Source of the DNA: an uncultured Marinilabiliaceae bacterium
GTDB lineage: Bacteria > Bacteroidota > Bacteroidia > Bacteroidales > Marinilabiliaceae
Direction: 5' to 3'
Length of the DNA stretch: 64,000 bases
Assembly (NCBI GenBank): GCA_964608615.1
Contig: CAZSQG010000005.1
Coordinates: 23,651 to 87,650, forward strand
In this document: piece after piece, positions 35,949 through 54,920 of the stretch
Layout: every line of letters begins with the position of its first letter
Numbering within the stretch: the stretch's first letter is position 1
Notes under the pieces: model-generated
What the model saw: the letters and a program-made list of their open reading frames with translations, nothing else
What the model was told of the DNA's origin: nothing
Database searches by the model: none
Program-made: the position numbers and the translations under genes

Positions 35949-35972
35949 TAAAATCTTAAACCCGTTTATATT

Positions 35973-36338
35973 ATGGCTAAAACCGTTTTAATTGTTGATG
36001 ACTCCGAAAGTATCCGGGAAGTCGTAAATTTTACCCTTCAAAACGAAGGATATGATGTTTTGGTGGGAGTTGATGGAGATGATGCACTTAAGTTTCTTGA
36101 TGGTCGTCATATTGACATAATTATTACCGACCTTCACATGCCAAACCTTGATGGACTAGGCCTTATTCGAAAAGTAAGAGAGATGGATGATTACAAACAC
36201 ATACCCATCCTTTTCCTTACCACCGAATCGCAGGCTGCTAAAAAAATGGAAGCCAAGGAAGCCGGAGCAACAGGCTGGATTATAAAACCATTTGTTCCAG
36301 CTAAATTGCTTTCTGCAATTTCCAGAGTAATAAGGTAA
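35973..36338 (+). CDS. cheY: CheY-like single-domain response regulator
   Basis: LIVDDS, DIIITDLHMPNLDG (phospho-Asp), LTT and the IIKPF Lys are all present. Confidence 0.9.
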   Translation: MAKTVLIVDDSESIREVVNFTLQNEGYDVLVGVDGDDALKFLDGRHIDIIITDLHMPNLDGLGLIRKVREMDDYKHIPILFLTTESQAAKKMEAKEAGATGWIIKPFVPAKLLSAISRVIR

Positions 36339-36345
36339 CAAAAGT

Positions 36346-36678
36346 ATGATCGAAAAAATAAAGGAACAGTTCCATTTAGAAACCTTAAATGAATTGCAAA
36401 TTATAAGCACCAATTTATCTGCTGAGATAATCTCTCCTGAAGATATGTCCTTGCTTATAAATAGAATATTTTCAATAACCCACCAAATTAGTGGTACCGG
36501 ACCAATGCTTGGTTTTGACTACACTTCTAAGTTGTCTCGGAAAATTGAGAAAACATTCTATGAAATCAGATCAGGTGAAAAAGCCCTTAACATGCAGATT
36601 GTTTTGCAAACTCGTCGTACAATTGATACAATGATAAAATCAATTAACGATGAGTTCAACAGCAAAAGAATCATATAA
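36346..36678 (+). CDS. Stand-alone Hpt (histidine phosphotransfer) domain protein
   Basis: 110 aa. RIFSITHQISGTGPMLGF parallels the CheA P1 motif RIFRAMHSLKGGGAMFGF of the next gene. Confidence 0.7.
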   Translation: MIEKIKEQFHLETLNELQIISTNLSAEIISPEDMSLLINRIFSITHQISGTGPMLGFDYTSKLSRKIEKTFYEIRSGEKALNMQIVLQTRRTIDTMIKSINDEFNSKRII

Positions 36679-36722
36679 CAATAAAAATAGTTTTTTAATT
36701 ATGCTTAAATGCTTTGTGTCTC

Positions 36723-38768: not shown

Positions 38769-38799
38769 TATAATTCAACGCTTAAATGTTTAAGCACTT

Positions 38800-39249
38800 A
38801 TGGAAAATGTGAATAAAACTATACTATCATTCCAGATAAATGAGAATGTCTTTGCAGTAGATGCTCTTCAAGTTGCGCATATACTTGAAATTCCTTCCAT
38901 TATCACAAAAGTTCCAAACACACCAGATCATCTAGTAGGTGTAATAAACCTTCATGGTAATATTATTCCTGTAGTGGACATGAGAATTATTATGGCCGAA
39001 GAGATTGGCGAGTCAAATGCCGACAACGCTATTATTGTCATTAATCCAGCCGAAATTCAGGATTCCAGATTTGGTATTATGGTAGATTTGGTTAAAGAAG
39101 TCTTGGAGATTAACTCAAATGATTTAAAAGAGACCATCTTAGAAGGAAGAAAAGGTATGATTGAAAACTTTGAAGGCACACTATTACAAAATGATACTTT
39201 TATTCATATCATCGACATTAACCATTTGGCTGAAATAATTGAAAAATAA
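38800..39249 (+). CDS. cheW: CheW coupling protein
   Basis: 149 aa with the CheW-like domain pattern (FQINENVFAVDALQV..I......KVPNTPDHLVGVINLHGNIIPVVD). Confidence 0.9.
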   Translation: MENVNKTILSFQINENVFAVDALQVAHILEIPSIITKVPNTPDHLVGVINLHGNIIPVVDMRIIMAEEIGESNADNAIIVINPAEIQDSRFGIMVDLVKEVLEINSNDLKETILEGRKGMIENFEGTLLQNDTFIHIIDINHLAEIIEK

Positions 39250-39267
39250 AAGGATAACAAAAAAAAT

Positions 39268-39756
39268 ATGGCCTCGATATTGAATTCATACCTTACATTC
39301 CTGATTGGAGAAGAGGTTTTTGGTGTTAATGTGACAAAAGTAATGGAAATCACAGAATATCAGACTCCAAAGCCACTTCCGCAAACCCTGCCATTTGTTT
39401 CAGGGGTAATACAATTCCGCGATGAAATCATCCCCTTAATAGATACAGGGATTAAATTTGGCATGTCACCTGTTGCCATTTTACCGGGTACATGTATTAT
39501 TATCCTTCAACTAATAAGCGACACTCTCGGTAAAACTTACCGTGTTGGCGTTTTAGTTGATGCTGTATCTGATGTGTTGGAATGTGATAATATTGATATG
39601 AAAAGTATTGAGGACGATTATAAACCTAATTACATCCTTACCACCTATCCTGTTGAAGATAAACTTATTTTTATTCTGAATGCCGATGTTGTTTTCAGCC
39701 AGAAAGAAATTATTAAAATGATTGAAATGATTAATAAACAAAAAAAAGAATCTTAA
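39268..39756 (+). CDS. cheW: CheW coupling protein (second copy)
   Basis: 162 aa with a CheW-like domain (FLIGEEVFGVNVTKV.EI......LPQTLPFVSGVIQFRDEIIPLID). Confidence 0.9.
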   Translation: MASILNSYLTFLIGEEVFGVNVTKVMEITEYQTPKPLPQTLPFVSGVIQFRDEIIPLIDTGIKFGMSPVAILPGTCIIILQLISDTLGKTYRVGVLVDAVSDVLECDNIDMKSIEDDYKPNYILTTYPVEDKLIFILNADVVFSQKEIIKMIEMINKQKKES

Positions 39757-39759
39757 TCA

Positions 39760-40629
39760 ATGGAGAAATCCGTTCATAATTCTGGGGGCCTGGACTGCTT
39801 TAAAGCTGAACTTTCGGAAAAAGACTTCCAGGTTTTCAGTCAATTTATTTATTCCGAATATGGAATAAAAATGCCACCTATTAAAAGAATTATGCTTCAG
39901 GGCAGACTCCTGAAAAGAATTAGAGAATTACAAATGTCATCGTATTCTGAATATAAAGATTACTTTTTTAGTAAAGAAGGACAAGATAAAGAGTTACTTC
40001 AATTTTTAAATGTTGTAACAACTAATAAAACTGATTTTTTTAGAGAACCTGTTCATTTTAATTTTATGAACGATGTAGTTCTTACGGCCTTTAAAAACAA
40101 CGGTATTAACGGTCAGCCTATAAAAATCTGGAGTGCTGGATGTTCAAGTGGAGAGGAACCTTACACCATATCGATCATTCTCAATGAGTATGAAAGATTA
40201 AATCCCTTGTTTAAATTTGATATTCTTGGTTCAGATATCTCCACACAAATGCTTGAAAAAGCAGCAAAAGGAGTTTATCAGGCAAACAAGCTGGTTACAG
40301 TTCCCATGGAACTAAAGAAAAGATATTTTTTGAAAAGCAAAGACCCCAACATTCACAACGTTAGGGTTCATCCTATTTTACAAAAAAACATCAGATTAAC
40401 CTATCTTAACCTGATGGATAATAGTTATTCAATTAAAGAGACATTTGATGTAATATTTTGTCGTAATGTTCTTATATATTTTGACCGTCCAACACAGGAA
40501 AAAGTTATAAATAAGCTCTGTTTACAGCTTAAACCCGGAGGATATTTTTTTATAGGACACTCCGAGTCCCTTTCAGGAATGGACGTTCCCTTAGAACATG
40601 TAAAACCGACAATATTCAAAAAAAAATAA
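39760..40629 (+). CDS. cheR: Chemotaxis protein methyltransferase CheR
   Basis: TDFFREPVHF, the SAM motif IWSAGCSSGEEPYT and DVIFCRNVLIYFD are all present. Confidence 0.95.
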   Translation: MEKSVHNSGGLDCFKAELSEKDFQVFSQFIYSEYGIKMPPIKRIMLQGRLLKRIRELQMSSYSEYKDYFFSKEGQDKELLQFLNVVTTNKTDFFREPVHFNFMNDVVLTAFKNNGINGQPIKIWSAGCSSGEEPYTISIILNEYERLNPLFKFDILGSDISTQMLEKAAKGVYQANKLVTVPMELKKRYFLKSKDPNIHNVRVHPILQKNIRLTYLNLMDNSYSIKETFDVIFCRNVLIYFDRPTQEKVINKLCLQLKPGGYFFIGHSESLSGMDVPLEHVKPTIFKKK

Positions 40630-40659
40630 GTATAACCACCAAGACGAAATAACAACATT

Positions 40660-41559
40660 ATGATGAACATTTCTGACAAACAGCTTTTAAAAGAGTTAAA
40701 AATCAAACTCGAGGAGCGGAAGAAATTTGAGGATGAAGTAAACCTACTTTCACAAGAACTTCAGGAAGTTACTCAACGCTTTAAGGAATCTGAAGCATTA
40801 AAAAGTCATTTTATTTCAAACATTTCCAATGAAATAGTAAACCCGTTTACATCTATACTAGGCCTTTCCAAATCAATTCTTGCCGTTGAAAAAAACGACT
40901 GGAAAAAAGTTGTAAGTATGGTAGCACTTATTCATAGTGAGGCCTTCAATCTCGATTTTCAGCTAAAGAACATCTTTGTTGCCGCCAAAATTGAAGCTGG
41001 AGAAGTTGTTCCCAATGTTGCCAAGGTTAATGTCAGAAACATAATCCAAACCATGATCGAATCATTTAGTCTGGTGGCTCGTAAAATGGCTATTGAAATT
41101 GATTTCAAGTTTAACATTGAATATGGTTTTGGGAAAAATTTCTATTTTAAAACCGACAGTGAAAAATTAAAGCTTATTCTGAGCAATCTCATGAATAACG
41201 CATTAAAATATAGTTATAAGGACAGCAAAGTAATTATAACAGTTTGGGTTGATGAAGATATTCTCAACTTCTCAGTACAGGATTTTGGTACAGGCATTTC
41301 TGAAAAAAATCAAAAAGTTATTTTCGAACGCTTCAAGCGACTCGATTCAGGCATTAATTCAATAAACCGCGGCCATGGGCTTGGACTCTCCATTACTAAA
41401 GCATTGCTAGATGTAATGGGAGGTTCTATTGAAATTGAAAGCAAAAAGGGTGAAGGCTCTACCTTTTATGCTAGGATACCTGAAGCCAAAAACATAATTG
41501 AAGGGTTTAGTGGAGAAGGTAATGAAACATTCTTCGATGAAGATGACGAGATTTTTTAA
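40660..41559 (+). CDS. Cytoplasmic histidine-kinase-like protein with degenerate H-box (HisKA + intact HATPase_c)
   Basis: A coiled-coil N-terminus is followed by the H-box region KSHFISNISNEIVNPFTSILG, which aligns to the consensus FlanmSHELRTPL with Asn (codon aat, 40828..40830) at the His position. The N-box LSNLMNNALKYS, G1 QDFGTGIS and G2 GHGLGLSI are intact. Confidence 0.8.
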   Translation: MMNISDKQLLKELKIKLEERKKFEDEVNLLSQELQEVTQRFKESEALKSHFISNISNEIVNPFTSILGLSKSILAVEKNDWKKVVSMVALIHSEAFNLDFQLKNIFVAAKIEAGEVVPNVAKVNVRNIIQTMIESFSLVARKMAIEIDFKFNIEYGFGKNFYFKTDSEKLKLILSNLMNNALKYSYKDSKVIITVWVDEDILNFSVQDFGTGISEKNQKVIFERFKRLDSGINSINRGHGLGLSITKALLDVMGGSIEIESKKGEGSTFYARIPEAKNIIEGFSGEGNETFFDEDDEIF

Positions 41560-41568
41560 GGAATTATA

Positions 41569-42039
41569 ATGGATCAATATTTACAACATTTTTTGTATCC
41601 TTCAACACTGTTTGCCAGTAAAGACCCTTATATGGTTAAAACCATACTGGGTTCGTGCGTAGCAATATGCCTCTACGATCCGGTTCAGAAGGTGGGTGGA
41701 ATAAACCACTATATGTTATCTAACTGGAACGGAAAAGATTTGGCTTCGCCCAAATATGGTAATATAGCCATAGAAAAACTGATTGAACGAATGTTGCATT
41801 ATGGATGTAAAAAAGAAAATCTACAAGCAAAAATTTTCGGTGGTGGCGATTTGATTGCTGCCGGCCGGAGTGCAATGCTAATAGGTGAGCGCAATATAAG
41901 GGTCGCCCGATTAATATTAGAAGAGAAAAACATTCCAATTATTGCCTCCAGTACAGGCGGTAGAAAAGGACGGAAAATTTTGTTCTTTACTGATACAGGC
42001 GAGGTAAGGCATAAATTTCTTGAGAAAAAAGAGTATTAA
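41569..42039 (+). CDS. cheD: Chemoreceptor glutamine deamidase CheD
   Basis: The LGSCVAICLYD catalytic Cys motif, GINHYMLS and KIFGGG are present. Confidence 0.9.
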   Translation: MDQYLQHFLYPSTLFASKDPYMVKTILGSCVAICLYDPVQKVGGINHYMLSNWNGKDLASPKYGNIAIEKLIERMLHYGCKKENLQAKIFGGGDLIAAGRSAMLIGERNIRVARLILEEKNIPIIASSTGGRKGRKILFFTDTGEVRHKFLEKKEY

Positions 42040-42060
42040 TCTTGTGGCAAGTTTATAGTA

Positions 42061-43143
42061 ATGATGGAGAAAAAAATTAGGGTATTAGTCGTAGATGATT
42101 CAGCGGTAGTCAGGCAAAGCCTTACCTCAATTCTGGAATCCGATCCGGATATTGAAGTAATGGGTACAGCTGCAGACCCCCTGATCGCTGTACGAAAAAT
42201 AATGAAGGAGATCCCTGATGTTATTACTCTTGATATTGAAATGCCTCGCATGGATGGACTCACCTTCCTGCGAAAGATAATGTCGCAACACCCCATTCCT
42301 GTTGTTGTAATTTCGTCATTAACCAGTCAGGGAACCGAGGTGGCAATGAAAGCGCTTGAATATGGTGCTTCAGAGATAATAGGCAAACCCGCAATGAATG
42401 CAGCCCAATTCTTTAATGAATCTCGAATATTACTTTGCGATGCAGTAAAAGCTGCTTCACAAGTTAAACTATCCAGACTAAAAATCACGAATACTCCATC
42501 ATTTGATTTAGTTAAGCCAAAATACTCAGCCGATATCATTCTTGAAAAAGCAACTCTCAAAAGTCGTATTGTAGACACTGAAAAAATTATTGTACTTGGT
42601 GCTTCAACGGGGGGAACGGAAGCTATACGTTTGCTTCTGCGTAACCTTCCGGCAAGGATGCCAGGTATTGCCATTGTACAACACATGCCCGAAGGCTTCA
42701 CCAAATCGTTTGCAAAAAGTCTCAATGCAAATTCGGAATTGGAGGTAAAAGAAGCAGAAGATGGTGATCGTATTTATCAGGGACGCGTACTTATTGCTCC
42801 CGGTAATTATCATATGTTGCTTAAAAGAATAGGGAAAGAGTATTCAGTAGAAGTAAGAGAAGGTCCTTTGGTTAACAGACACCGACCCTCGGTGGATGTT
42901 CTTTTTCGTTCAGCGGCCAGATATGCCGGTCAAAATGCTACAGGGATACTTCTTACCGGAATGGGTGCTGATGGCGCAAAAGGATTATTGGAACTAAAAG
43001 AAGCCGGAGCCCATACAATTGCTCAGGATCAACAATCTTCCGTTGTTTTTGGTATGCCTAAGGAGGCGATAAAACTTGGTGCAGCTGACGAAATATTAGG
43101 AATGAATAACATTGCACCCTATCTGGTGAAGAAGTTTTATTAA
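42061..43143 (+). CDS. cheB: Chemotaxis response regulator protein-glutamate methylesterase CheB (REC + esterase)
   Basis: The REC domain has VLVVDDS and [12 protein letters not shown]. The esterase triad context is LGASTGG, VQHMP and TGMGADGA. Confidence 0.95.
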
Positions 43144-43286: not shown

Positions 43287-45164
43287 ATGAAAAAAATACA
43301 GCCAAAAGCACTAATTACAAAATACACCTTCATTGGTACAACATTAGGAGTATTCATAACCCTGGTAATTTTTCTGCTAAGCATGGATTCTCCACAATAT
43401 AAATTATCCAACAGCTCTATTACAAGCTTGTTCACTATGTTTCCTGCCCTATGGGCTGCTCTGTGCCTTCCTTTCATTAGTGGAATAGCTGGTTTTTTCC
43501 TTGCAAAAAGCTTTTCGAAGATCATTAAAAAACAAACCAATAAGCTTAAAAAAGAAGCCAGTAAAACCAAAATGGTGCTTTCATTTATTGACAATCTCAG
43601 ACAAAATAAACTGGAAGAGGTTATAAAAGTAAAAGATGAAAATGATCCTCTTACTCAAGCGTTAGTCAATTTGCGAAGATTTATGATTCATAGTAAGGAA
43701 GAACAGGAAAAGCGTCGCATTGAAGAAGAACAACGAAACTGGGTTACAGAAGGATTAGCTCAATTTGGAGAAATACTACGACAAAATAACGATAACCTTG
43801 AAGAAATATCTTTAACAATAATCCGATACCTGGTAACTTATATTAAAGTCAATCAGGGCGGTGTTTTTCTTGCAAACAAGACAAAGTCGGGGGAAAAAGT
43901 TTTAGAAATGACCGCCTGTGTTGCTTATGACCGAAAAAAGTTTGCCGATAAAATTGTAAAATGGGGCGAAGGCCTACTGGGTAGATGTGCTTTAGAAAAA
44001 GAAACCATATTCATTACTGACGTACCCAACCAATATATTAATATCACTTCCGGACTTGGCGATTCTAACCCAGGAACGCTTTTGCTGGTACCATTAAAGA
44101 CTAACGAAGAAATATATGGAGTAATTGAGCTTGCTTCGTTCCAGGTTCTCCAAAGATTTGAAATTGAGTTTGTTGAAAAAACTGCCGAGAGCATTGCTTC
44201 TACAATATCAACAGTAAAAAATAATATACAAACCAATAATCTTCTGCGCGAAACACAGATACAAGCCGAAAAAATGTCCCAGCAGGAAGAAGAATTGCGT
44301 CAGAATCTTGAAGAAATGCGTGCAACACAAGAAGAAAGCGACAGACGGGAAGTTGAACGGAAAGGTATTCTTGAAGCAATTGACCATGCAGCTATTTCAT
44401 GCGAATTCGATACATCCGGAACGCTCTTATCAATTAACGATAATTTTCTTAAAACATTTAAGTATAAACCCGAAGAGGTTGAAGGTCAAAACCTGAAAAT
44501 ATTCTTTTTTAAGGATGATGTAGGAGAGCTTGACCGGATTCTTGCCGACCTCTCAAATGGACACAACTTTAGGGGCCGCGTACGCAGAAGAACCAAAGCC
44601 GGTGAAGAAATTTATTTACTCACAACTTATAGTCCGGTAATAGATCATAATGGGGAAATTCTTAAAATTCTGAGTCTTGAAAACGATGTAACCGAACAAG
44701 TTGAATTGGAAGAAGCCCTTAAACATTCCAAGGAAGAACTTGGACTCTTACTAGAAGACGCCAGAAATGAAGTTATGGAACAGTTTAAAGAAATTGAGTC
44801 TGTTAAAATCCGTAACGAAAAAACCCTTGAAGGAGCTCTTGATGCAATAATTACCACCAACAAAGAAGGAACTTTAGAGTTTTTTAATCTGGCTGCTGAG
44901 AAATTGTGGGGTTACGAAAGAAATGAAGTACTTGGACAAAATGTTTCAATGTTATTTTCTAAAGAAACATCTAAAACCAACGAATTCGTTTCTGCTTTTA
45001 TCTCCATTGATGGTGAGAAAATTGTAGGAGAAAGACGGGAAATTCCTATCAGGAATAAATATGGAGAAGACATTTCAGTTCTTTTCTTACTATCAGAAGC
45101 AAAAGTGGGCGATGATCACTCCTTTACGGCTTTCATCCAGAATGTAGAAGTTGAACTTTTTTAA
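43287..45164 (+). CDS. Membrane-anchored GAF + 2x PAS sensor protein without recognisable output domain
   Basis: Two N-terminal TM helices and a coiled coil precede a GAF domain (NQGGVFL...GEGLLGR...ITSGLGDSNPGTLLLVPL...YGVIELASF). An E/Q-rich coiled coil (QQEEELRQNLEEMRATQEE) follows, then two PAS-like domains. The protein ends directly after the second PAS domain. Confidence 0.8.
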   Translation: MKKIQPKALITKYTFIGTTLGVFITLVIFLLSMDSPQYKLSNSSITSLFTMFPALWAALCLPFISGIAGFFLAKSFSKIIKKQTNKLKKEASKTKMVLSFIDNLRQNKLEEVIKVKDENDPLTQALVNLRRFMIHSKEEQEKRRIEEEQRNWVTEGLAQFGEILRQNNDNLEEISLTIIRYLVTYIKVNQGGVFLANKTKSGEKVLEMTACVAYDRKKFADKIVKWGEGLLGRCALEKETIFITDVPNQYINITSGLGDSNPGTLLLVPLKTNEEIYGVIELASFQVLQRFEIEFVEKTAESIASTISTVKNNIQTNNLLRETQIQAEKMSQQEEELRQNLEEMRATQEESDRREVERKGILEAIDHAAISCEFDTSGTLLSINDNFLKTFKYKPEEVEGQNLKIFFFKDDVGELDRILADLSNGHNFRGRVRRRTKAGEEIYLLTTYSPVIDHNGEILKILSLENDVTEQVELEEALKHSKEELGLLLEDARNEVMEQFKEIESVKIRNEKTLEGALDAIITTNKEGTLEFFNLAAEKLWGYERNEVLGQNVSMLFSKETSKTNEFVSAFISIDGEKIVGERREIPIRNKYGEDISVLFLLSEAKVGDDHSFTAFIQNVEVELF

Positions 45165-45179
45165 TATAAACCCTTAAGA

Positions 45180-46025
45180 ATGCAGGAAAGCGAAGAGGAT
45201 ATTACTTTTAAAGAATATCTGCAAATACTTAAGGACTCCTCACCATACGATTTCAGTGAGTATTCAGATAATTCAATTTTTCGCCGCTTACATAAAGTTA
45301 TGCGCGATTATCATATTAGTCTTAATGAGCTCGTTAAAAAAACGAAAACTGACAGAGATTTTGTTGAAGAAATAGTTGAAGCTATAACGGTTAACACTAC
45401 CGAGCTCTTTCGCGATCCATCGGTTTGGATGTTTATTCTTGAAAAGCTGCTCCCTCCTTTAGCAAATAAACCAAACATCAACATCTGGCATGCCGGATGT
45501 TCTTCGGGCCAGGAAGTTTATTCCAACCTCATTTTGCTTGACCATCTTGGACTTTTAGAACACTCCAATATATATGCAACCGACATCAGCCAGAAAGTTC
45601 TTGATCAGGCTAAAAAGGGTGTTTACAAATACCGTTTCAACCTGAATTACATCGAGAACTTCAACCAGGTACTCAACCTCAAAAATAAAGAAGATTTTTC
45701 CAAGTATTTTGATATAAATGAATCGGAAGATAAAATCGTTGTTAAGGATTTTTTAAGAAAGATACCTAAGTTTATAAAACACGATCTGGTTCAGGAAAAA
45801 ATGCCGTTTTATAATAAATTTGACATCATCTTTTGCCGTAATGTTTTGATTTATTTCAACACAGGACTTCAATCAAGAATTATACAACGGTTTTATGATA
45901 ACCTTTTCCCCGGTGGATCGTTGGTTTTGGGAACACATGAAGCCATAACAGGTTTTTTCAAAACTAAATTTATTAAGACCGGATTAATTTATTCAAAAAG
46001 CAACGTGTTTCATTTTAAATCTTAA
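45180..46025 (+). CDS. CheR-type methyltransferase (second, orphan copy)
   Basis: TELFRDPSVW, the SAM motif IWHAGCSSGQEVYS and DIIFCRNVLIYFN are present. Confidence 0.85.
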   Translation: MQESEEDITFKEYLQILKDSSPYDFSEYSDNSIFRRLHKVMRDYHISLNELVKKTKTDRDFVEEIVEAITVNTTELFRDPSVWMFILEKLLPPLANKPNINIWHAGCSSGQEVYSNLILLDHLGLLEHSNIYATDISQKVLDQAKKGVYKYRFNLNYIENFNQVLNLKNKEDFSKYFDINESEDKIVVKDFLRKIPKFIKHDLVQEKMPFYNKFDIIFCRNVLIYFNTGLQSRIIQRFYDNLFPGGSLVLGTHEAITGFFKTKFIKTGLIYSKSNVFHFKS

Positions 46026-46033
46026 GAAAAACC

Positions 46034-46858
46034 GTGAACTTTAGTATAAATGAAATAAAGGAAATTACGCTCTCTATGTTAACATACCCTAACATGGACT
46101 ATACTAATTATTCCATTTCGTTTTTAAAGCGAAAATTCTCTTCAGTTTTCGCTAAACTTAATATTAAAAGAAAAGAACAACTTTATGAAAGGTTAAAAAA
46201 GAAGGACTTCAGGGATCAACTCATTACCCAAATGCTTGTGGAAAACACAGAAATGTTTCGCGATCCTGCCTTTTGGAGACTTCTTAGAGATAAAGTAATT
46301 CCCTTATTGCCTGACAACTCAACTGTATGGTTACCAAACGAAAGCAGTGGCGAAGAAGCATATTCAGTTTCGGTTTTGCTAAATGAAAAAAAAGTTGCTT
46401 CTAAAATTAAAATTATTTGCAATAATCCATCTTTAGAGATGTGCAACTCCATTAACCAAGGCCATTTAAACGGGAAACATTTTGACATAAATCTTACCAA
46501 CTACCGTCGTCTGGAAGAAAACGACTTTTTCGATGAGTATTTTTCACTCGAAAACAATGATCTGGTTGTTTGTAATAAACTAAGGGGAAACGTAAATTGT
46601 AAATATGGGTTTATTTCCGACACCATTCCTACAGAAGATATATCCCTAATTCTTTTCAGAAACATAGCGATTTATTATAATAATCGACTTGCCAATACTG
46701 TTTTCAATATATTATATGAGAAACTAATTCCCGGTGGATACCTCGTTATTGGAGTTAAAGAACAATTACCCTCAGGTATAGCAGAAAAAATGATAACAGT
46801 TAATGAAACAGAAAAAATATTTAAAAAACCCTTAGCCCAAACTAATGGATATTCTTAA
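46034..46858 (+). CDS. CheR-like protein with degenerate SAM-binding motif
   Basis: The start codon is GTG. TEMFRDPAFW is retained, but the motif equivalent to WSAGCSSGEE reads WLPNESSGEE, and FCRNVLIYF reads LFRNIAIYY. Confidence 0.75.
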   Translation: MNFSINEIKEITLSMLTYPNMDYTNYSISFLKRKFSSVFAKLNIKRKEQLYERLKKKDFRDQLITQMLVENTEMFRDPAFWRLLRDKVIPLLPDNSTVWLPNESSGEEAYSVSVLLNEKKVASKIKIICNNPSLEMCNSINQGHLNGKHFDINLTNYRRLEENDFFDEYFSLENNDLVVCNKLRGNVNCKYGFISDTIPTEDISLILFRNIAIYYNNRLANTVFNILYEKLIPGGYLVIGVKEQLPSGIAEKMITVNETEKIFKKPLAQTNGYS

Positions 46859-47429
46859 AATTGACCGATGTTTTAAACTCATTGTTATGGGGGGTTCTGC
46901 AGGTAGTTTTTCTGTGGTTTCAAAAATACTGTCTCAAATTAAGCCTGATTTTAATATCCCCATAATCCTGTCGCTCCATCGTCTGAAACATGTGCGTTCA
47001 GGCTTGGTTGAAAGCTTAAGCTTTAAATCGGTTTTAAAGTTAATAGAGCCAAACGATAAAGAAAAAATCCGCCCTAATATGGCGTATCTCGCTCCTTCTA
47101 ACTACCATCTTTTCATAGAATATGACGGTCATTTTTCATTATCTACCGAAGAATCTCTCAACCATAGCAGGCCTTCTATTGATCACTCATTTTCATCGGC
47201 AGGCGATGCATATCGCGAAAAAACACTTGGAATTCTACTAACCGGAGCAAATAAAGATGGAGCACAGGGATTAAAAAACATATACGATCACAAGGGTTTT
47301 ACAATTGTTCAAGATCCAAAAACCTGTGATATTGAAACCATGCCACAATCGGCCCTTAAGCTTTTTAATCCCAATATGATATTATCTCCCGATCAAATTA
47401 TTCTTTTCCTTAACAACCTGCCACAATGA
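46845..47429 (+). CDS. CheB-type methylesterase domain protein lacking a receiver domain
   Basis: 194 aa with MGGSAGS (Ser nucleophile context), SLHRLKH and LTGANKDGAQG, which parallel the CheB esterase motifs. It overlaps the preceding gene by 14 nt. Confidence 0.8.
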   Translation: MDILKIDRCFKLIVMGGSAGSFSVVSKILSQIKPDFNIPIILSLHRLKHVRSGLVESLSFKSVLKLIEPNDKEKIRPNMAYLAPSNYHLFIEYDGHFSLSTEESLNHSRPSIDHSFSSAGDAYREKTLGILLTGANKDGAQGLKNIYDHKGFTIVQDPKTCDIETMPQSALKLFNPNMILSPDQIILFLNNLPQ

Positions 47430-48199
47430 ATATTCAAAAAAAAATTAACAAACCGTTTACATACTGGTTTTTTCTGTTGGCAGGAATCGTATTCCTGCTT
47501 ACAATAACCCGACACTTTCTTTTTGAGTCAAAGGCAGAGCCAATGTTCTATTATTTTGAGATAATTTCATTTATAGTATTTATGGTAATGCTTTTACTAA
47601 CAGAGAAACAATGTGCTAGTTTTCAGGAGCAAATCAGGCTACTTAATGAAACATATAAAAATGACAAAACTGAATGGCAAAATAAAATCCTTGATTTACA
47701 AAACAACCTTTCAGTTTTTGAAAAAGAAGAGAAAGAGGTACAAGGCATGTTAATTAAACAGGAAACTATTATAAAACAGGTTTTTGATAACAAAAGCAAT
47801 AAAAAGGGAAACACAAGTTTTCTTTATTTATTTTCGGAAGCAACTCATGCCTCGGCAGCAATTCTTTACAAAGAAACAAAACCCTCGGGTGGTTTTATCG
47901 TACAAGATTCTTACGGATTACCAGAAGATTTTTCACCGCAATCATTTGAACGTGGAGAAGGACTTTGTGGCCAAACGGTAATAGATGGAGTTCCTCTGTT
48001 AATTGAAGATATTCCTGACGATTACTTTATGATGTTATCAGGGCTTGGAAAAGCTAAACCAAAATTTATCTATTTCCTGCCGGTAATGGATAATAATAAT
48101 TGCATAGCTTTAATAGAATTAGCTACCTTTAAAAAAAACGACCTGGAAAAAATGTGGCAGGGCATTTCAACCAAAATAATTGATAAAGGAATTTTATAA
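47426..48199 (+). CDS. Membrane-anchored GAF-domain protein
   Basis: Two TM helices and a coiled coil precede a GAF-like domain (GEGLCGQ...MLSGLGKAKPKFIYFLPV...CIALIELATF). It overlaps the CheB-like gene by 4 nt. Confidence 0.7.
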   Translation: MNIQKKINKPFTYWFFLLAGIVFLLTITRHFLFESKAEPMFYYFEIISFIVFMVMLLLTEKQCASFQEQIRLLNETYKNDKTEWQNKILDLQNNLSVFEKEEKEVQGMLIKQETIIKQVFDNKSNKKGNTSFLYLFSEATHASAAILYKETKPSGGFIVQDSYGLPEDFSPQSFERGEGLCGQTVIDGVPLLIEDIPDDYFMMLSGLGKAKPKFIYFLPVMDNNNCIALIELATFKKNDLEKMWQGISTKIIDKGIL

Positions 48200-48208: not shown

Positions 48209-50827
48209 ATGTCGTTTAAACCTGAAAATATAAGTATAAAAGATTTGAGAAGAGCTATCTCCCTTAAGGAGATCTCGTATTCAAAGAAGTTTATTCTATA
48301 TACTTCTTTCATACTTCTTTTTATTCTTTCTTGGTCAGGCTTTTTAGCTCTGGAAAAAACCAATTTTTCACTACTGAGTATTATAGCTCTTCACAAAAAT
48401 GCTCTGGTTTGGTTTACCGACTTTCTTATTTTTGGAGTTGCTTTTTCGGGTATTGTTTACTTTAACCTTTTAAAATCCAAAACCGAAAAACTAAAAAACA
48501 AAGTTTATGAACTTAACGAAAGAATACAGGTTAACATTGAACTTGCAAATAATCTTAAATATGCAAATTGGGAAAAACTCCAAGCCAATGGAGACATCTT
48601 ATCCCAAACATTATTAGAACTTGGACTTAACATTAGAGACAGTAAAAAAAGAGAAGAAGAACAAAACTGGATTACAAACGGGAAAGATCTGATTTCAGAT
48701 TTGCTTAGAAATTCTCATAACCTGGAGGATCTATCCGTTTCAGTTATTAAAGCTCTAATCAACTATATGGGTGGCATACAAGGTGCTTTTTACCTAAATC
48801 AAGGGAGCGTACTTAAAAGAAGTGCTATGTATGCCTATGGGCGTCGACGCTTTGAATACAATGAAATACCAATTGGTAAGGGCCTTATTGGTGCCTCCGC
48901 TTATGAAAAAGCCATAATTTTTCGGTCCGAAATTCCCGAAGATTACTTTATTGTAACCTCAGGTCTTATAGGAGAGCAAAAACCTAAAAGCATATTACTG
49001 ATTCCTTTACTTCAGGAAGAGGATTTACAAGGTGTTTTGGAAATAGCCTTTCTGGAAACTCGTCTTCCAAAATATAAAAACATTTTTGCCGAGGAGGTAG
49101 GTTCAATAATTGGACAAACAATTTACAACCTAAAAATTACCACCCGTACCGAAATGTTGCTTAAGGAATCGCAGGAAATGACCACCATTCTTAGGGAAAA
49201 CGAAGAAAAACTGCGCCAAAACGCAAGAGAAATGATTGTTGGTCAGGAAGAACTCGAACGTAGCAACCAGATGCTTGAATCACAAATACAGGAGGTTGCA
49301 AACTCCCAAAAGAAACTTGAAGCATTGCTTACCAACGCCTCTGAATTCATCTCAATTTATGACGAAAACCAAATCCTTGTTTTTGAAAGTCCTTCAGTTA
49401 AGAGAATTCTGGGTTATTCTGATTCAGACATCATAAATGGCATGGATCCCGAAATATTAACTCCCAGAGGTTTAAAAACAATAAATCGATTATTCCAATT
49501 CCTACTTGATACCCCAGGAGGTGAACAAATTGCACAATACACTTATTTAAGGAAAAATGGGGAGAAGCTTTTTCTGGAGACTAAAGGAAAAAACTTACTT
49601 CACGATCAGGCAATCAGAGGTATAATTTTTAATACTCAGGATATAACCGAACGAAAACGTGCCGAAAAAGAGGAACGTATGAAAAGCCGGATGCAAAGCT
49701 TATCGGAAAATTCTCCTGATATGATCATCCGAATTAACTTATTGGGAAAGCTTGTTTATGTAAACCCTGCTGTTTCAAGATTCATTGACATTCCAGCGTC
49801 TGAACTTGTTAAGAAACGAATACCCGATTTAATGATCGATCCTCGTTTTATTGAATTCATGCAGGAAACATTAGCTTCCGTACGAGATCAACAACAACAA
49901 ATTATTTCGGAGGTTGCTGTAAGCTCAAATGATGGCGAACGAATTATGGAGATTAAAGTAATCCCTGAATTAGGTGAAGAGGGCGAACTTGAAACCATAC
50001 TGTTCGTAGCTCATGATATGACTGATTTCAAAAAAATAGAACAGGAAATAAAGGAAAAAAATAAAAAGATTTCAGACAGTATTAACTATGCACAAAGGAT
50101 TCAAACATCCATTTTACCCAATACTGGGTTACTACAAGAATACTTTCCACGTTCATTTATCTTTTATCGTCCCAAAGATATAGTAAGTGGTGATTTCCCG
50201 TGGTTTTTCAGAAAAGATAATATATACTATGTTGCTGCAGTTGACTGCACAGGCCATGGTGTTCCGGGGGCTTTAATCAGTTTTATCGGACATTTCCTTT
50301 TAAACAACATTGTAAGCGTTGATAATAACTCAACTGCTGCCCAGATTATGGATAATCTCCATCTTGAGGTTAGAAGTACTTTAAAACAAGATCAGGAAGG
50401 AGCTACAGGGCGCGACGGAATGGATCTTGCATTATGCAAGATCGATCCCGATAATAAAATTCTTGAATTTGCCGGAGCTCATCGTCCTTTATATTATCTT
50501 CGAAAGGGAGAATTAACAGAATATCAAGGTACACGAAAAGGAATTGGAGGAATACCATTAGCAAAAAAAACTGAAAAAGATTTTGAAAATCATGTTATCC
50601 ACTATCAAAGTGGTGATCAAATATTTATTTTTAGTGATGGATTACCTGATCAGCTGGGAGGACCGGAACGTAAAAAATACCAGTCACGTCGTATTCGTGA
50701 AGCATTAACTGAAAAACAGAATGTTTCAATGGCTCATTTTTCGCGCCATTTTTCAATGGATTTTTACGACTGGCTGGGAGAAGAAAAACAAGTTGACGAT
50801 GTCCTTTTGATAGGAATTGAATTGTAA
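48209..50827 (+). CDS. Membrane GAF + 2x PAS + PP2C (SpoIIE/RsbU/SiaA-type) protein phosphatase
   Basis: TM helices precede a GAF domain (GIQGAFYL...GKGLIGA...VTSGLIGEQKPKSILLIPL...QGVLEIAFL). A coiled coil and two PAS domains follow. The C-terminal PP2C motifs are SGDFPWF, AVDCTGHGVPGA and FSDGLPDQ. Confidence 0.9.
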   Translation: MSFKPENISIKDLRRAISLKEISYSKKFILYTSFILLFILSWSGFLALEKTNFSLLSIIALHKNALVWFTDFLIFGVAFSGIVYFNLLKSKTEKLKNKVYELNERIQVNIELANNLKYANWEKLQANGDILSQTLLELGLNIRDSKKREEEQNWITNGKDLISDLLRNSHNLEDLSVSVIKALINYMGGIQGAFYLNQGSVLKRSAMYAYGRRRFEYNEIPIGKGLIGASAYEKAIIFRSEIPEDYFIVTSGLIGEQKPKSILLIPLLQEEDLQGVLEIAFLETRLPKYKNIFAEEVGSIIGQTIYNLKITTRTEMLLKESQEMTTILRENEEKLRQNAREMIVGQEELERSNQMLESQIQEVANSQKKLEALLTNASEFISIYDENQILVFESPSVKRILGYSDSDIINGMDPEILTPRGLKTINRLFQFLLDTPGGEQIAQYTYLRKNGEKLFLETKGKNLLHDQAIRGIIFNTQDITERKRAEKEERMKSRMQSLSENSPDMIIRINLLGKLVYVNPAVSRFIDIPASELVKKRIPDLMIDPRFIEFMQETLASVRDQQQQIISEVAVSSNDGERIMEIKVIPELGEEGELETILFVAHDMTDFKKIEQEIKEKNKKISDSINYAQRIQTSILPNTGLLQEYFPRSFIFYRPKDIVSGDFPWFFRKDNIYYVAAVDCTGHGVPGALISFIGHFLLNNIVSVDNNSTAAQIMDNLHLEVRSTLKQDQEGATGRDGMDLALCKIDPDNKILEFAGAHRPLYYLRKGELTEYQGTRKGIGGIPLAKKTEKDFENHVIHYQSGDQIFIFSDGLPDQLGGPERKKYQSRRIREALTEKQNVSMAHFSRHFSMDFYDWLGEEKQVDDVLLIGIEL

Positions 50828-51851: not shown

Positions 51852-54800
51852 ATGAGTGAAGAAATTCTAAAAGCATTAATGCAGTTGTTTGGTTTACTAA
51901 CCAAACAAGATGGAGGTGTTGGATCCAACGAGACAGAATATGTGCGTACGTTTCTTAAGCAACAACTAAATAAAGAAGCTGTTGAAGAATATTTTTCGCT
52001 CTTTTTAACTTACACAACCGAAGAAAATAAAACCAAACCGGGCGATGAAGAAGGTAAGATTCAACTTACCTCCATGAAAGACTCAGTTAGAATTCTGGGT
52101 ATATGCAAAAAAATAAATAAACAGCTTAACAGGGAACAAAAAGTTGTTGTGTTAGTGCGATTATATGAGCTTGTCAGCATGGATATGAAGCTGACCGATC
52201 AACGCATGGCCATCATCAACACTGTTGCCGATGTTTTCAAATTACCTAAGAACGAGATATCTGCAATTGAGGCATTTGTTCTTCAAAATGATATCACAAA
52301 ATTGAACTTCCCTGACATACTGATAGCCAATGACACGGAGATTCAGGATGTACAGTTTAAACATATTAATACAACCGGTCTTCATGGATCAGTTCTGGTT
52401 TTAAATGTAAAAAGTGCCGAACTGTATTTTATGCGTTACAACGGCGACCAGGATGTTTTTTTGAATGGCTTGGTTATCAGTAATAAAAGAATTTATCTGT
52501 TTCCTAATGGGAGCTTTATTAGAATACCTATTGGAAAACCAATATATTATACTGATGTTGTTAGTCGGTTTATGGCCGATTCTGATTCACCAAAAATCAC
52601 TTACGAAGTTAAAAACGTTCATTTTCGTTTTAAAAGTGGAGCAGTAGGTCTGCGCAACATCAATATAGCAGAAGAACAAGGCCGCCTCATTGGAATAATG
52701 GGTGCCTCAGGTGCAGGAAAAACCACCTTGCTCAACGTTCTCTCTGGCATTGAAAAACCAACTGAAGGAGAAGTTCTTATCAATAACTATAATCTCCATG
52801 CCGATAAAGAAGATCTCAACGGAGTTATTGGTTTAATTCCACAAGATGACTTGCTTATTGAAGAACTCACCGTTTTTGAAAATCTTTATTATAACGCAAA
52901 ACTCTGTTTCAGAGATAAAGGGGAAGAAGAATTAATCGGCATGGTTAATGAAACCCTTCAAAATCTTGGCCTTTTTGAAAGACGACATTTAAAAGTTGGA
53001 TCACCTCTTAACAAGATGATTAGTGGAGGCCAGCGTAAAAGATTAAACATAGCACTGGAATTAATTCGTCAGCCATCAGTTTTATTTGTTGATGAGCCAA
53101 CCTCCGGTCTTTCTTCACGCGATTCTGAAAACGTGATGAACCTGCTTAGAGAACTAACACTAAAGGGAAAACTGATCTTTGTGGTTATCCACCAACCATC
53201 TTCCGACATCTATAAGATGTTTGATAAAATGTTTATCCTTGATACTGGCGGCTATCCTGTTTATTATGGAAATCCGGGTGAATCGCTTATTTACTTTAAA
53301 CAACTTGACGCACAAATAAATAGCGATCAGGGTGAATGCCCAACTTGTGGTAATCTGAACCCCGAACAAATATTCAATATCATTGATGCCAATGTTATTG
53401 ATGAATATGGAAATTATACAAACAAAAGAAAAGTAGAAGCAGAAGATTGGTATAAACTCTTTGAAAAAACGCATTCGCTACCCTCTGTTAAAACCGTTGA
53501 AACCTCTCCCCCAAAGAGTTTGAACATCCCATCATGGTTCAATCAGTTTAAAATTTACACCTTACGCGATTTTTTCGCCAAAATTAGTAACACCCAATAT
53601 ATTGCCCTTAACTTATTAGAAGCACCATTTTTGGGTTTTATTCTTGCCTATTTGATCCGTTATATTGCTGATCCAACATCGAATTTTTACATTTTCAGAG
53701 AAAACGAAAACATACCACCTTACATATTTATGGGCATAGTGGTGGCTCTGTTCTTTGGTTTAATAATTAGTGCCGAAGAAATATTTAAAGATTCCAAAAT
53801 ACTGAAAAGAGAGTCATTTCTAAATCTTAGCCGTTCAAGCTATCTGAGTTCCAAGATTCTCCTGCTTTTCACTATTTCAGCCATTCAAATGTTCCTTTTT
53901 GTTTTCGTAGCAAATACAATTCTTGGTATTAAGGACATGTATTTTGAATTCTGGCTCGCATTATTCTCCATTTCAGCTTTTGCCAATATTCTCGGATTAA
54001 TATTATCAGCATCATTTAACAGTATTGTTACCATATATATTCTTATTCCATTGGTAATGATTCCTCAAATGGTATTGGGTGGAGCTATGTTTACATTCGA
54101 TAAACTAAACAAGGACTTTACCAGTGTCGACAAAGTGCCAGCAGTTGCTGAATTCATGCCTTCGCGATACATTTATGAAGGATTGATTGTACATCAGTAC
54201 AAGCACAATAATTTCAAAAAGAATTACTTTGACATCGAGCTTCAGGAAAGTAAAAGCGACTTTAAACAAGTACATTACCTTCCAGAATTACACGATATTT
54301 TAAATGAGTGTTCTTTACATATAATTGATGGCAAACCCACATCAGACAAGACATTTGTCAACGATCTGGAATTAATAAGGAATGAGATTTCGAAAGAATT
54401 AATAAGAGTTCCCGAATTGCAATTTAGTTTAATTGATAAAATCACACCTGAAGAATTTAATTCAGATATTGCCCAAAATATTGACAACTACCTAAACAAC
54501 TTGCTTGTATATTACCGAGGTGTTTTTACTAAAGCAAATAGTTCAAAGGACCGCTTTATAAGTATCAACATCAACCAAGATGCCACACGTTTTAACCGCA
54601 TTAAAGATGAGTACTATAATGAAAGTATTTCATCAATTGTTCGCAAAGAATTTGAGAAAAATAAAATTCTGAGACAAGACAACCATTTAGTACAAATGGC
54701 TGACCCTATTTATCAGATTCCCGAACCTTCAGGTTTCTGGTCGTTTCGTACCCATTTCTTTGCTCCGGTTAAACATTTAGGTGGAAATTTCTTTGAAACA

Positions 54801-54920
54801 TTATGGTTCAATATATTCATGGTATGGATTTTGACTATATCGTTATATATTGTTTTGCATTTTGACCTATTGAAAAAGGGATTAAACCTTATAGAATCAA
54901 TAAAATGGCGAAAAAAGTAA
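51852..54920 (+). CDS. ABCG-type (ABC-2) ATP-binding/permease fusion with ~270-aa N-terminal extension (TerB-like + FHA-like)
   Basis: Walker A is GIMGASGAGKTT, the signature is ISGGQRKRL and Walker B is VLFVDEPTSGL. A C-terminal multi-TM ABC-2 domain is present. The N-terminus (ILKALMQLFGLLTKQDGGVGSNETEYVRTFL) looks TerB-like. Residues around 175-240 (...YNGDQDVFLNGLVISNKRIYLFPNGSFIRI) look like a degenerate FHA domain. Confidence 0.85.
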   Translation: MSEEILKALMQLFGLLTKQDGGVGSNETEYVRTFLKQQLNKEAVEEYFSLFLTYTTEENKTKPGDEEGKIQLTSMKDSVRILGICKKINKQLNREQKVVVLVRLYELVSMDMKLTDQRMAIINTVADVFKLPKNEISAIEAFVLQNDITKLNFPDILIANDTEIQDVQFKHINTTGLHGSVLVLNVKSAELYFMRYNGDQDVFLNGLVISNKRIYLFPNGSFIRIPIGKPIYYTDVVSRFMADSDSPKITYEVKNVHFRFKSGAVGLRNINIAEEQGRLIGIMGASGAGKTTLLNVLSGIEKPTEGEVLINNYNLHADKEDLNGVIGLIPQDDLLIEELTVFENLYYNAKLCFRDKGEEELIGMVNETLQNLGLFERRHLKVGSPLNKMISGGQRKRLNIALELIRQPSVLFVDEPTSGLSSRDSENVMNLLRELTLKGKLIFVVIHQPSSDIYKMFDKMFILDTGGYPVYYGNPGESLIYFKQLDAQINSDQGECPTCGNLNPEQIFNIIDANVIDEYGNYTNKRKVEAEDWYKLFEKTHSLPSVKTVETSPPKSLNIPSWFNQFKIYTLRDFFAKISNTQYIALNLLEAPFLGFILAYLIRYIADPTSNFYIFRENENIPPYIFMGIVVALFFGLIISAEEIFKDSKILKRESFLNLSRSSYLSSKILLLFTISAIQMFLFVFVANTILGIKDMYFEFWLALFSISAFANILGLILSASFNSIVTIYILIPLVMIPQMVLGGAMFTFDKLNKDFTSVDKVPAVAEFMPSRYIYEGLIVHQYKHNNFKKNYFDIELQESKSDFKQVHYLPELHDILNECSLHIIDGKPTSDKTFVNDLELIRNEISKELIRVPELQFSLIDKITPEEFNSDIAQNIDNYLNNLLVYYRGVFTKANSSKDRFISININQDATRFNRIKDEYYNESISSIVRKEFEKNKILRQDNHLVQMADPIYQIPEPSGFWSFRTHFFAPVKHLGGNFFETLWFNIFMVWILTISLYIVLHFDLLKKGLNLIESIKWRKK

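Follow-up and report, generated by a model that had tools for sequence, protein, structure and literature searches.

Which proteins are served by a second set of glutamate methylation enzymes encoded directly behind a chemotaxis-like cluster that already possesses its own? This question is raised by a 64,000-nucleotide stretch of DNA, hereafter the window, from an uncultured Marinilabiliaceae bacterium (assembly GCA_964608615.1, contig CAZSQG010000005.1, positions 23,651 to 87,650), in which three consecutive genes encode a CheR-type methyltransferase (CheR2), a degenerate CheR paralogue (CheR3) and a CheB-type methylesterase lacking a receiver domain (CheB2). In textbook accounts, chemotaxis receptors owe their memory to the reversible methylation of glutamate residues. 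From comparison of sequences, CheR2, CheR3 and CheB2 probably constitute a private methylation module for the neighboring GAF sensors rather than an adaptation set for methyl-accepting chemotaxis proteins (MCPs). The initial annotation had put forward the GAF proteins as substrates, and this assignment is the most likely one given the conserved linkage of the trio to a GAF-PP2C-SiaB-SiaC block, the presence of orthologous enzyme pairs in genomes lacking MCPs and CheW, and the homology of the GAF-helix module to the Bacillus cereus kinase RsbK, with methylation of the helices as the predicted event.

Gene organization and conserved linkage of the trio

All genes between positions 32812 and 56407 of the window lie on the plus strand and are closely packed. 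The trio comprises CheR2 (45180..46025; Pfam CheR, 138 bits), a predicted catalytically competent methyltransferase; CheR3 (46034..46858; Pfam CheR, 75.5 bits), a pseudo-methyltransferase with a CheR fold in its AlphaFold2 model; and CheB2 (46845..47429; Pfam CheB_methylest, 149 bits), a methylesterase/deamidase catalytic domain alone. CheR2 starts 15 nt past the end of GAF1, a gap of 8 nt separates CheR2 from CheR3, CheR3 and CheB2 overlap by 14 nt, and CheB2 overlaps GAF2 by 4 nt, so that the coordinates, strand and spacing first assigned to the trio hold on the sequence. Upstream, GAF1 (43287..45164; 625 residues) is a membrane-anchored protein of the order GAF, long helix, PAS, PAS. Downstream, GAF2 (47426..48199; 257 residues; Pfam GAF_2) is a small membrane protein with only a GAF domain, and the SiaA-like GAF3-PP2C (48209..50827; 872 residues; Pfam GAF_2, PAS and SpoIIE) combines GAF, S-helix, two PAS domains and a PP2C phosphatase. 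These are followed by a SiaB-family kinase (50817-51434; NCBIfam SiaB_fam, 172.5 bits against a cut-off of 85), a SiaC phosphoprotein (51446-51826; Pfam SiaC, 141 bits), an ABC exporter of 1022 residues (51852..54920), placed by the conserved order SiaB-SiaC-ABC-p305-p151, and two small conserved genes 3' of it that correspond to p305 and p151 of related loci.

The block encodes all three of a SiaA-like PP2C phosphatase, a SiaB kinase and a SiaC phosphoprotein, the NCBIfam SiaA match in GAF3-PP2C covering the PP2C part only (165 bits, under the equivalog cut-off of 700). No GGDEF gene for a SiaD-type diguanylate cyclase is found in the block, and the ABC exporter stands in its place. This exporter lies 3' of SiaB-SiaC in nearly all related loci and is the likely output of the partner switch formed by SiaB and SiaC, which is presumably under the control of the GAF3-PP2C phosphatase.

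A profile scan for the CheR3 family, with one genome per species, recovers 79 loci. About 34 loci share the gene order GAF1-CheR2-CheR3-CheB2-GAF2-GAF3PP2C-SiaB-SiaC-ABC, and in L001-L025, L028, L029, L034 and L042 conservation of the order extends over the entire stretch between CheA and the ABC exporter; the block follows on from a complete Che cluster in the Marinilabiliaceae and in some gut Bacteroidales. Loci L026, L027, L030 and L040 keep CheR2-CheR3-CheB2-GAF2-GAF3PP2C-SiaB-SiaC-ABC, with no Che cluster upstream of the trio within a flank of up to 10 kb, where unrelated or opposite-strand genes are found. Because these loci retain the phosphatase block without an adjacent Che cluster, the trio is tied to the phosphatase block and not to the MCP/CheA block. 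Whether a locus has the trio or a CheR/CheB pair, GAF2 invariably sits between the CheB and phosphatase genes. The protein lacks the helix and is the fastest-evolving member, with a nonsynonymous divergence (dN) of 0.38 versus 0.01-0.2 for its neighbors.

Related enzyme pairs in genomes without chemoreceptors

Other loci recovered by the CheR3 profile place a CheR and a receiver-less CheB beside hybrid kinases of 1000-1450 residues. Their hosts are Flavobacterium, Spirosoma, Chitinophaga, Parapedobacter, Puteibacter, Bacillaceae, Alphaproteobacteria, Desulfosarcina and a spirochaete, and no MCP signaling domain is found in three genomes carrying such loci.

SiaC loci were additionally sampled across the phylum without reference to CheR, and their surroundings were compared. 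In another family, the three complete genomes G120, G320 and G368 carry the order CheR - receiver-less CheB - GAF2 - HAMP-GAF-helix-PAS-PAS-PP2C - SiaB - SiaC - ABC - p305 - p151, and in these genomes neither an MCPsignal match above cut-off nor CheW is present. Since they have no MCP, their Sia-linked CheR/CheB pair cannot act on one. For two of the three, G120 and G368, the top-scoring Pfam MCPsignal matches below threshold include one (13-16 bits, model positions 73-146) that coincides exactly with the S-helix of the phosphatase (9624-9854 of L129, on G120:C8, and G368:C4:75740-75970, respectively).

Each of these three genomes also encodes, elsewhere, two to three GAF1-like proteins of about 470-670 residues with the same helix, an arrangement resembling several receptors that share one adaptation pair. 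A variant block is found in L049 of a Flammeovirgaceae metagenome-assembled genome (9995-16742), comprising an intact CheR, a 276-residue protein with PP2C only, SiaB, SiaC, ABC, p305 and p151; it includes no CheB, its phosphatase has no helix, and a divergently oriented 1154-residue kinase with a LLEETQRQAEELETQQ helix and its own CheR lies upstream.

Phylogeny of the methylation enzymes

In the CheB tree, CheB2 nests (support 99) among receiver-less CheBs encoded beside giant kinases, a clade that includes genomes with zero MCPs, and the catalytic domains of CheB1 and of a second canonical CheB from the same genome (contig C27) lie 2.2 substitutions per site from the CheB2 side. The CheR tree comprises five groups: the MCP-linked CheR1 group (100/100), a kinase-linked group (100/99), CheR2 (100/98), CheR3 (100/100) and a group of intact Sia-linked CheRs. 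The last contains the MCP-less genomes, L049 and L060, and joins CheR3 with a support of 94/90 for the whole group and 81/53 for the inner join. Long branches part CheR2 and CheR3 from CheR1, which groups with the CheB-CheR fusion kinases (99/96), and the backbone split that places CheR2 on the side of this CheR1-plus-fusion group is weak (86/55). CheR1, CheB1 and the C27 pair belong to MCP-linked clades, and CheR2, CheR3 and CheB2 fall outside them, for CheR2 with the backbone support just given.

As sister to the intact Sia-linked CheRs, CheR3 looks like a degenerate descendant of the enzyme that originally served the Sia locus, and CheR2 may be an added catalytic paralogue, its deeper origin being weakly supported in the tree. 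An origin of the trio by recent duplication of CheR1 and CheB1 is ruled out by the trees. Kinship of CheR2 and CheB2 to the CheB-CheR fusion kinases, a comparison suggested by the initial annotation, is likewise rejected: the fusion domains are not close to either protein and group with the MCP-linked clade, though via long branches.

Catalytic state of CheR2 and CheB2

CheR2 retains the motifs IWHAGCSSGQE, ATDIS and FCRNVLIYF, and residues W103, G106, C107, S108, G110, E112, D135, R220 and N221 are invariant in 35 orthologues, in keeping with its first description as an enzyme with intact motifs. These features suggest that CheR2 is the catalytically competent protein-glutamate methyltransferase of the module. 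Its dN relative to the closest relative is 0.095, compared with 0.082 for CheR1; synonymous divergence (dS) already reaches saturation in this closest comparison, and dN alone is therefore reported, dN/dS not being computable.

CheB2 consists of 194 residues forming the catalytic domain alone, and its 38 orthologues range from 185 to 240 residues. The triad S18/H45/D138 aligns to the triad of 1CHD and is invariant in all 38. Pfam detects no receiver domain in CheB2, the start of which overlaps the end of CheR3; as had been pointed out from the sequence, the absence of this domain places CheB2 beyond control by CheA phosphorylation.

CheR3 is a conserved pseudo-enzyme

CheR3 starts with GTG, a nearby ATG being out of frame, and Pfam calls its CheR domain but not CheR_N. 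Motif I reads WLPNESSGEE where W(H/S)AGCSSGEE is expected; in CheR3 it takes the general form W-(L/F)-P-x-E-(S/T)-S-G-E-E, becoming variable in distant members (PDTPSGEE, PNLTNGYE, PGTTAGND). In class I methyltransferases, the post-I acidic residue holds the ribose of S-adenosylmethionine (SAM). This residue is lost in CheR3, as D135 of CheR2 (ATDIS) aligns to N131-P132 of CheR3 (CNNPS), and the position is occupied by N, H, A, V or S across the clade. The segment LFRNIAIYY, earlier taken for a divergent post-I region, is in fact the retained R-N motif, and the actual loss is that of the post-I Asp.

Despite these losses the fold is intact. The AlphaFold model has a mean predicted local distance difference test score (pLDDT) of 92, includes the N-terminal helical domain, and superimposes on Bacillus subtilis CheR (5FTW) with template modeling (TM) scores of 0.77/0.83. 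The family is small and sharply bounded, with about 30 sequence clusters before scores fall from 249 to 119 bits at ordinary CheRs. Although CheR3 evolves about twice as fast as CheR2, its dN versus the closest relative is 0.21 while dS is saturated, which indicates that the gene is maintained. The assignment of CheR3 as a pseudo-enzyme, proposed at the outset from motif I and the supposed post-I region, is thereby upheld: motif I and the post-I Asp are lost, the fold is kept and the gene persists.

CheR3 never occurs without CheR2, both being present in 34 of 34 loci; where a locus has a single CheR, that CheR is intact, and a degenerate CheR is found only beside CheR2. This is the pattern expected if both proteins act in one pathway. 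In canonical CheR, the regions of the β-subdomain and the N-terminal helix contact the receptor. The most invariant residues of CheR3 lie in the β-subdomain motif NxTNY(K/R)RLE and in a basic N-terminal helix (FLKRR), and because these correspond to the receptor-contacting regions, a non-catalytic docking role is plausible by analogy. A bolder proposal, which we hold only tentatively and judge somewhat unlikely as a whole, is that CheR3 is the obligatory non-catalytic subunit of a two-CheR methyltransferase, a descendant of the original Sia-linked enzyme that would dock or read the methylation state as CheR2 catalyzes; together with an always-on CheB2, it would impose chemotaxis-style adaptation on the SiaA/B/C-to-ABC switch, physically coupled to the Che pathway, with GAF1 serving as an output-less methyl-accepting co-sensor.

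A candidate methyl-accepting helix in the GAF sensors

Pfam assigns GAF_2 to residues 170-307 of GAF1 and PAS to residues 370-470 and 513-552, with no output domain. In the AlphaFold2 model (pLDDT 80), one continuous 79-residue helix (residues 290-368) joins GAF to PAS. The E/Q-rich segments described earlier do lie directly after the GAF domains, and that of GAF1 is contained within this single helix. Its S-helix portion (residues 319-355, LLRETQIQAEKMSQQEEELRQNLEEMRATQEESDRRE; 44241..44351, plus strand) is almost invariant in 27 orthologues, the whole proteins being 33-85% identical. Specifically, the pairs E335/E336, E342/E343 and E349/E350 are spaced seven residues apart, each followed by a hydrophobic core residue, in the same register as the methylation helix of the genome's own MCP. 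The classical CheR site is Glu-Glu-x-x-Ala-Ser/Thr, and EEMRAT of GAF1 fits the corresponding EExxA(S/T) consensus. We propose these Glu pairs as candidate methylation sites and GAF1 as a methyl-accepting co-sensor. A possible C-terminal pentapeptide tether on GAF1 (…VEVELF) was considered and rejected, as these residues close the PAS domain and lack an aromatic-x-x-F signature.

The S-helix of GAF3-PP2C (residues 317-353, LLKESQEMTTILRENEEKLRQNAREMIVGQEELERSN; 49157..49267, plus strand), conserved in 28 orthologues, reads LLKESQ...NEEKLRQNAREMIVGQEELERSN and is homologous to that of GAF1. Relatives without GAF1 carry a fuller phosphatase helix, NEEQLRQNAEEMRATQEELE, and the fuller form ...EQLRQNAEEMRATQEELE is shared by MCP-less genomes and relatives without GAF1. 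Across orthologues the first helix pair is EE, ED, QE, EQ or QQ, and such interchange of E and Q is typical of methylation sites. GAF3-PP2C is proposed as the main methyl-accepting signal transducer. Pfam calls neither CHASE3 nor HAMP in GAF1 or GAF3-PP2C of the window, and HAMP is called in the orthologous 1119-residue phosphatase of an MCP-less genome. Neither window protein is a histidine kinase of the HisKA-HATPase-REC type, GAF1 having no output and GAF3-PP2C ending in PP2C/SpoIIE.

The GAF-helix module extends to RsbK-type kinases. GAF1 aligns with a Neobacillus kinase of the HAMP-GAF-helix-HisKA-HATPase-REC architecture; the alignment spans 189 residues with 31% identity (E=3e-28) and ends at LLxE(S/T)Q, where the helix starts. 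Two loci found by CheR3 homology, Neobacillus L039 and Peribacillus L079, are themselves of the RsbK/RsbM type, with a HAMP-GAF-helix-HisKA-HATPase-REC kinase followed by CheR.

Co-occurrence of the helix with CheR and CheB

A triple heptad pattern, written as the regular expression [EQ][EQ][LMIV]x4, matches 9 of the 8566 open reading frames (ORFs) of the own genome, including five MCPs (one a fragment) and one GAF1, and this rarity, with mostly MCPs among the matches, argues against a chance effect of composition. The pattern misses the GAF3 helix of the window, which has two good pairs only, and a profile of the GAF end plus helix (A4) was added for this reason. Kinases encoded beside CheR/CheB pairs carry LLEETQxQ(A/S/T)EELxxQQEELRQxNEELEEQ right after GAF, plainly the same module as in GAF1. 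The triple heptad is present in 33 of 100 ORFs of at least 800 residues in the kinase-linked CheR/CheB loci versus 1 of 189 in the own genome (p=3e-16). Among SiaB/SiaC loci with an adjacent PP2C gene, drawn from the CheR-unbiased sample, the phosphatase carries the LLxESQ...LRQNAEEMxAxQEELE helix in 3/3 cases with adjacent CheR/CheB and 0/11 without (Fisher p=0.003), the sample of positives representing two independent lineages.

At the level of genomes, profile A4 (E of 1e-10 or better) matches 37 of 401 genomes of the phylum, and 32 of these 37 encode a bona fide CheR. Within the Bacteroidia, for which about 100 sampled genomes were counted from the pattern of genome handles, the table of module against CheR reads 28/3/19/50 (p=3e-9), with CheR in 28 of 31 module genomes. 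Among the ORFs listed for the 19 genomes that have CheR but not the module, long CheR-bearing ones suggest that most of these genomes carry CheB-CheR fusion kinases. Outside the own genome, CheR is encoded in about 46 of the roughly 100 Bacteroidia genomes sampled; about 42 of these 46 have no MCP, and four have one; CheR genes in this class are therefore systematically mislabeled as chemotaxis genes by annotation pipelines.

Giant proteins of about 2050-2150 residues with the GAF-end-plus-heptad-helix module occur in G052, G068 and G168, genomes without a bona fide CheR, and form exceptions to the co-occurrence of helix and CheR. Similar module proteins of about 1900-2230 residues are also found in CheR-positive genomes.

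Proposed mechanism

In the mechanism that we propose, ligand or redox inputs at the GAF and PAS domains would set the conformation of the helix, and CheR2 would methylate exposed, heptad-spaced Glu pairs on the S-helices of GAF1 and GAF3-PP2C. CheB2, permanently active in the absence of a receiver domain, would remove the methyl groups and may deamidate Gln. The constant pairing of a receiver-less CheB with the methyltransferase is expected to make the modification reversible. As in MCPs, the signaling state would govern how readily the enzymes reach their sites; modeling and experiments in Escherichia coli indicate that state-dependent enzyme access is enough for adaptation without CheB phosphorylation. 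Neutralization of charge would alter helix packing and hence the strength with which GAF and PAS drive the PP2C domain, so that the methylation level could bias dephosphorylation of SiaC-P by PP2C against the SiaB kinase and thereby control the ABC exporter. GAF1 could act as a co-sensor that pairs with the phosphatase through its homologous helix, or as a methyl sink, and CheR3, presumably unable to bind SAM normally, may be kept as a non-catalytic partner, for example by docking CheR2 on its substrate.

Alternative explanations

Several observations weigh against a private role of the trio in the methylation of GAF sensors. Every genome with the trio also has MCPs, and in most of them the trio directly continues the Che cluster on the same strand, with no terminator-like site in between; on the plus strand of the window, none is found from 42900 to 52000 in a scan that does no better than chance and leaves Bacteroidota promoters uncovered. 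The own genome encodes at least seven MCP genes and three CheA genes, to be served by two canonical CheR/CheB pairs. The earlier statement that no second MCP is encoded in the window holds, the one at 33801 being the sole copy there, but does not extend to the genome, where at least six more MCP genes lie on other contigs. Beyond the cluster of the window there are two further Che clusters, and one of them, the third Che-type cluster (C108:1-8980, minus strand), shows no CheR or CheB on its short contig, where the MCP is cut by the contig end. The trio could serve this cluster, and the label of orphan first given to it is thus only relative.

These facts favor an alternative in which CheR2 and CheB2 form a second chemoreceptor adaptation set, acting on the MCP at 33801, on orphan MCPs or on the C108 cluster, with adjacency to the GAF genes reflecting co-regulation. 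Receptor-specific CheR/CheB paralogues are on record in Pseudomonas (Garcia-Fontana et al. 2013, as cited in PMC4951495). We nevertheless regard such an assignment as unlikely: the trio stays with the phosphatase block and not with the Che cluster in L026, L027, L030 and L040, genomes devoid of MCP and CheW harbor both the nearest intact relatives of CheR3 and members of the CheB2 clade, CheR2 and CheB2 are far from the MCP-linked clades, and the Che cluster of the window is already equipped with CheR1, CheD and CheB1.

The helix itself is the next point at issue. Five of the 37 genomes with the helix module have no CheR, which indicates that methylation is no precondition for the helix, and purely structural constraints could account for its conservation. 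The helix of the window's own GAF3-PP2C has a degenerate middle pair (R-E), L060 encodes CheR and CheB with few E/Q pairs in the helix, and the co-occurrence statistics ignore shared ancestry. The E/Q helix might then serve signal transmission only, with the enzymes acting on another component of the Sia module (SiaC, SiaB, GAF2 or the N-terminal domain of the ABC exporter) or CheB2 working mainly as a Gln deamidase. Linkage of the trio to the whole block and not to the helix specifically, the invariable neighbor GAF2 with no helix, the genomes that keep the module without CheR, and the CheR of L049 beside a short PP2C protein without helix are all consistent with such a substrate. This option is nonetheless very unlikely, as the only known targets of the CheR family are Glu residues in the helical coiled coils of MCPs and RsbK (PMC4574943), presence of the helix among SiaA-like phosphatases follows that of CheR/CheB, and the same helix accompanies CheR/CheB beside kinases without Sia proteins. 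An extremely improbable reading is that the trio represents a decaying duplicate of adaptation genes with no present function, to which the lost SAM-binding residues of CheR3 and its roughly twofold rate relative to CheR2 might point; all three ORFs are intact in at least 34 loci of deeply diverged genera, dN is 0.1-0.2 at saturated dS, CheR2 and CheB2 show no variation in their catalytic residues, and CheR3 folds confidently as a CheR. Methylation of the GAF sensors by the trio therefore probably remains the best account, with the additional reservation that reversible adaptation is unproven even in the B. cereus model, where RsbM has no esterase.

Comparison with known systems

In B. cereus, RsbK has the architecture CHASE3-HAMP-GAF-S-helix-HK-CA-REC, and the CheR-type RsbM, encoded beside it, methylates its S-helix after GAF, as demonstrated with a 14C-SAM assay (Chen et al. 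2015, PMC4574943). Methylation of RsbK is needed to keep sigma-B off, and 127 RsbK-like kinases have been counted in 10 phyla (PMC4574943); RsbM has no paired esterase (PMC4574943; PMC12848376). An earlier report on RsbM-RsbK is attributed to Chen et al. 2012 (Environ Microbiol 14:2788, as cited in PMC4574943). The same homology that supports the GAF proteins as substrates thus implies that methylation of a non-MCP sensor is not new, and the initial suggestion that the locus would be the first extension of Glu methylation to such a protein does not stand (PMC4574943). In the literature, RsbK/RsbM is the only biochemical case of Glu methylation outside MCPs that we found.

The locus resembles RsbK-RsbM in placing a CheR-type gene beside a sensor in which GAF is followed by a signaling helix with E/Q heptads, and resembles RsbK-RsbM(-RsbY) in using a PP2C phosphatase to drive a phospho-protein partner switch. 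Unlike RsbK, the sensors of the window have no histidine kinase: the helix leads to two PAS domains and PP2C in GAF3-PP2C, which in effect shortcuts the step from RsbK to RsbY (REC-PP2C), and GAF1 has no output. Unlike RsbM, the methyltransferase is paired with a receiver-less CheB. Further differences are the addition of a conserved dead CheR paralogue, the use of SiaB/SiaC near an ABC exporter in place of RsbV/RsbW/sigma-B, and the appending of the block to a Che cluster. New here are the output through a PP2C partner switch, the receiver-less CheB paired with the methyltransferase, and the conserved pseudo-CheR.

A second point of comparison is cfcABCDE of Pseudomonas putida, in which the kinase CfcA is followed by a CheR/CheB pair for which a chemotaxis role was ruled out (PMC4951495). 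The locus shares with it, and with the cassette of CheR, receiver-less CheB and CHASE3/GAF hybrid kinase in general, stand-alone CheR and CheB beside a GAF-helix sensor, as well as the LLEETQ...QQEEL helix of the hybrid kinase cassette and the position of CheB2 inside the cassette-type CheB clade; CheR2 and CheR3 are nearer to cassette-type CheRs than to CheR1, each forming its own clade. It differs in output, that of cfc being a hybrid kinase feeding a diguanylate cyclase, and in the single active CheR of cfc. We know of no demonstration of CfcA methylation. For the Bacteroidota, no paper on methylation of a GAF or kinase helix was found; the position of CheR/CheB downstream of multi-REC kinases has received a passing remark (PMC5108060).

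With canonical chemotaxis adaptation the locus shares the enzyme folds, the catalytic residues and a helical candidate substrate with heptad-spaced [EQ][EQ] pairs. Unlike canonical CheB, CheB2 has no receiver and no feedback from CheA, and unlike MCPs, the GAF proteins have no MCP signaling hairpin and no CheW/CheA array, their enzymes lying outside the MCP-linked clades. The CheB-CheR fusion kinases (KEGG K13924) likewise associate methylation enzymes with PAS kinases and NEEL-type heptad helices in largely MCP-less genomes; they differ in being single polypeptides and in the MCP-linked, long-branched grouping of their domains. Finally, the SiaA-like PP2C phosphatase, SiaB-family kinase and SiaC phosphoprotein match Pseudomonas aeruginosa SiaABCD, from which the locus departs in having no SiaD, a GAF-helix-PAS sensor phosphatase, private methylation enzymes and an ABC exporter next to them.

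Collectively, the locus suggests a methylatable GAF-helix module plugged into a PP2C partner switch and probably gating an exporter. The system offers cultivable hosts (Alkaliflexus, Marinilabilia and Geofilum) and small soluble enzymes, provides a way to ask why a dead CheR is kept, and, with a helix of about 35 residues, poses the question of whether coiled-coil signal transmission in general is open to adaptation by methylation.

Genomic surroundings and further loci

The plus-strand run of the window opens at 32812 with a YfiR-like gene upstream of the MCP at 33801. The Che-like cluster that follows (33801..43143, plus strand; Pfam) encodes MCP, STAS, CheY, Hpt, CheA, two CheW proteins, CheR1, a histidine kinase-like protein, CheD and CheB1, and is complete, with CheR1, CheD and CheB1 as its own adaptation enzymes. 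On C108, the order is a 1214-residue multi-PAS kinase of the HisKA_3 type, a LuxR-type response regulator, a single REC protein, CheA, CheW and the N-terminal half of an MCP; the multi-PAS kinase carries NEEL-type heptads (QELLAAMEELDTSNEELHANNEEL).

A second SiaB-SiaC pair of the own genome is located on contig C23 at about 44800-45850, with no PP2C, CheR/CheB or ABC gene recognized in the 12 kb upstream. On contig C77 (11885-15598), a 1237-residue membrane PAS kinase without adjacent CheR/CheB contains a NEEY/NEEL heptad helix (LQSQNEEYAMLNEEYMALNEELRCTNEEL) immediately before HisKA and represents a further candidate methyl-acceptor.

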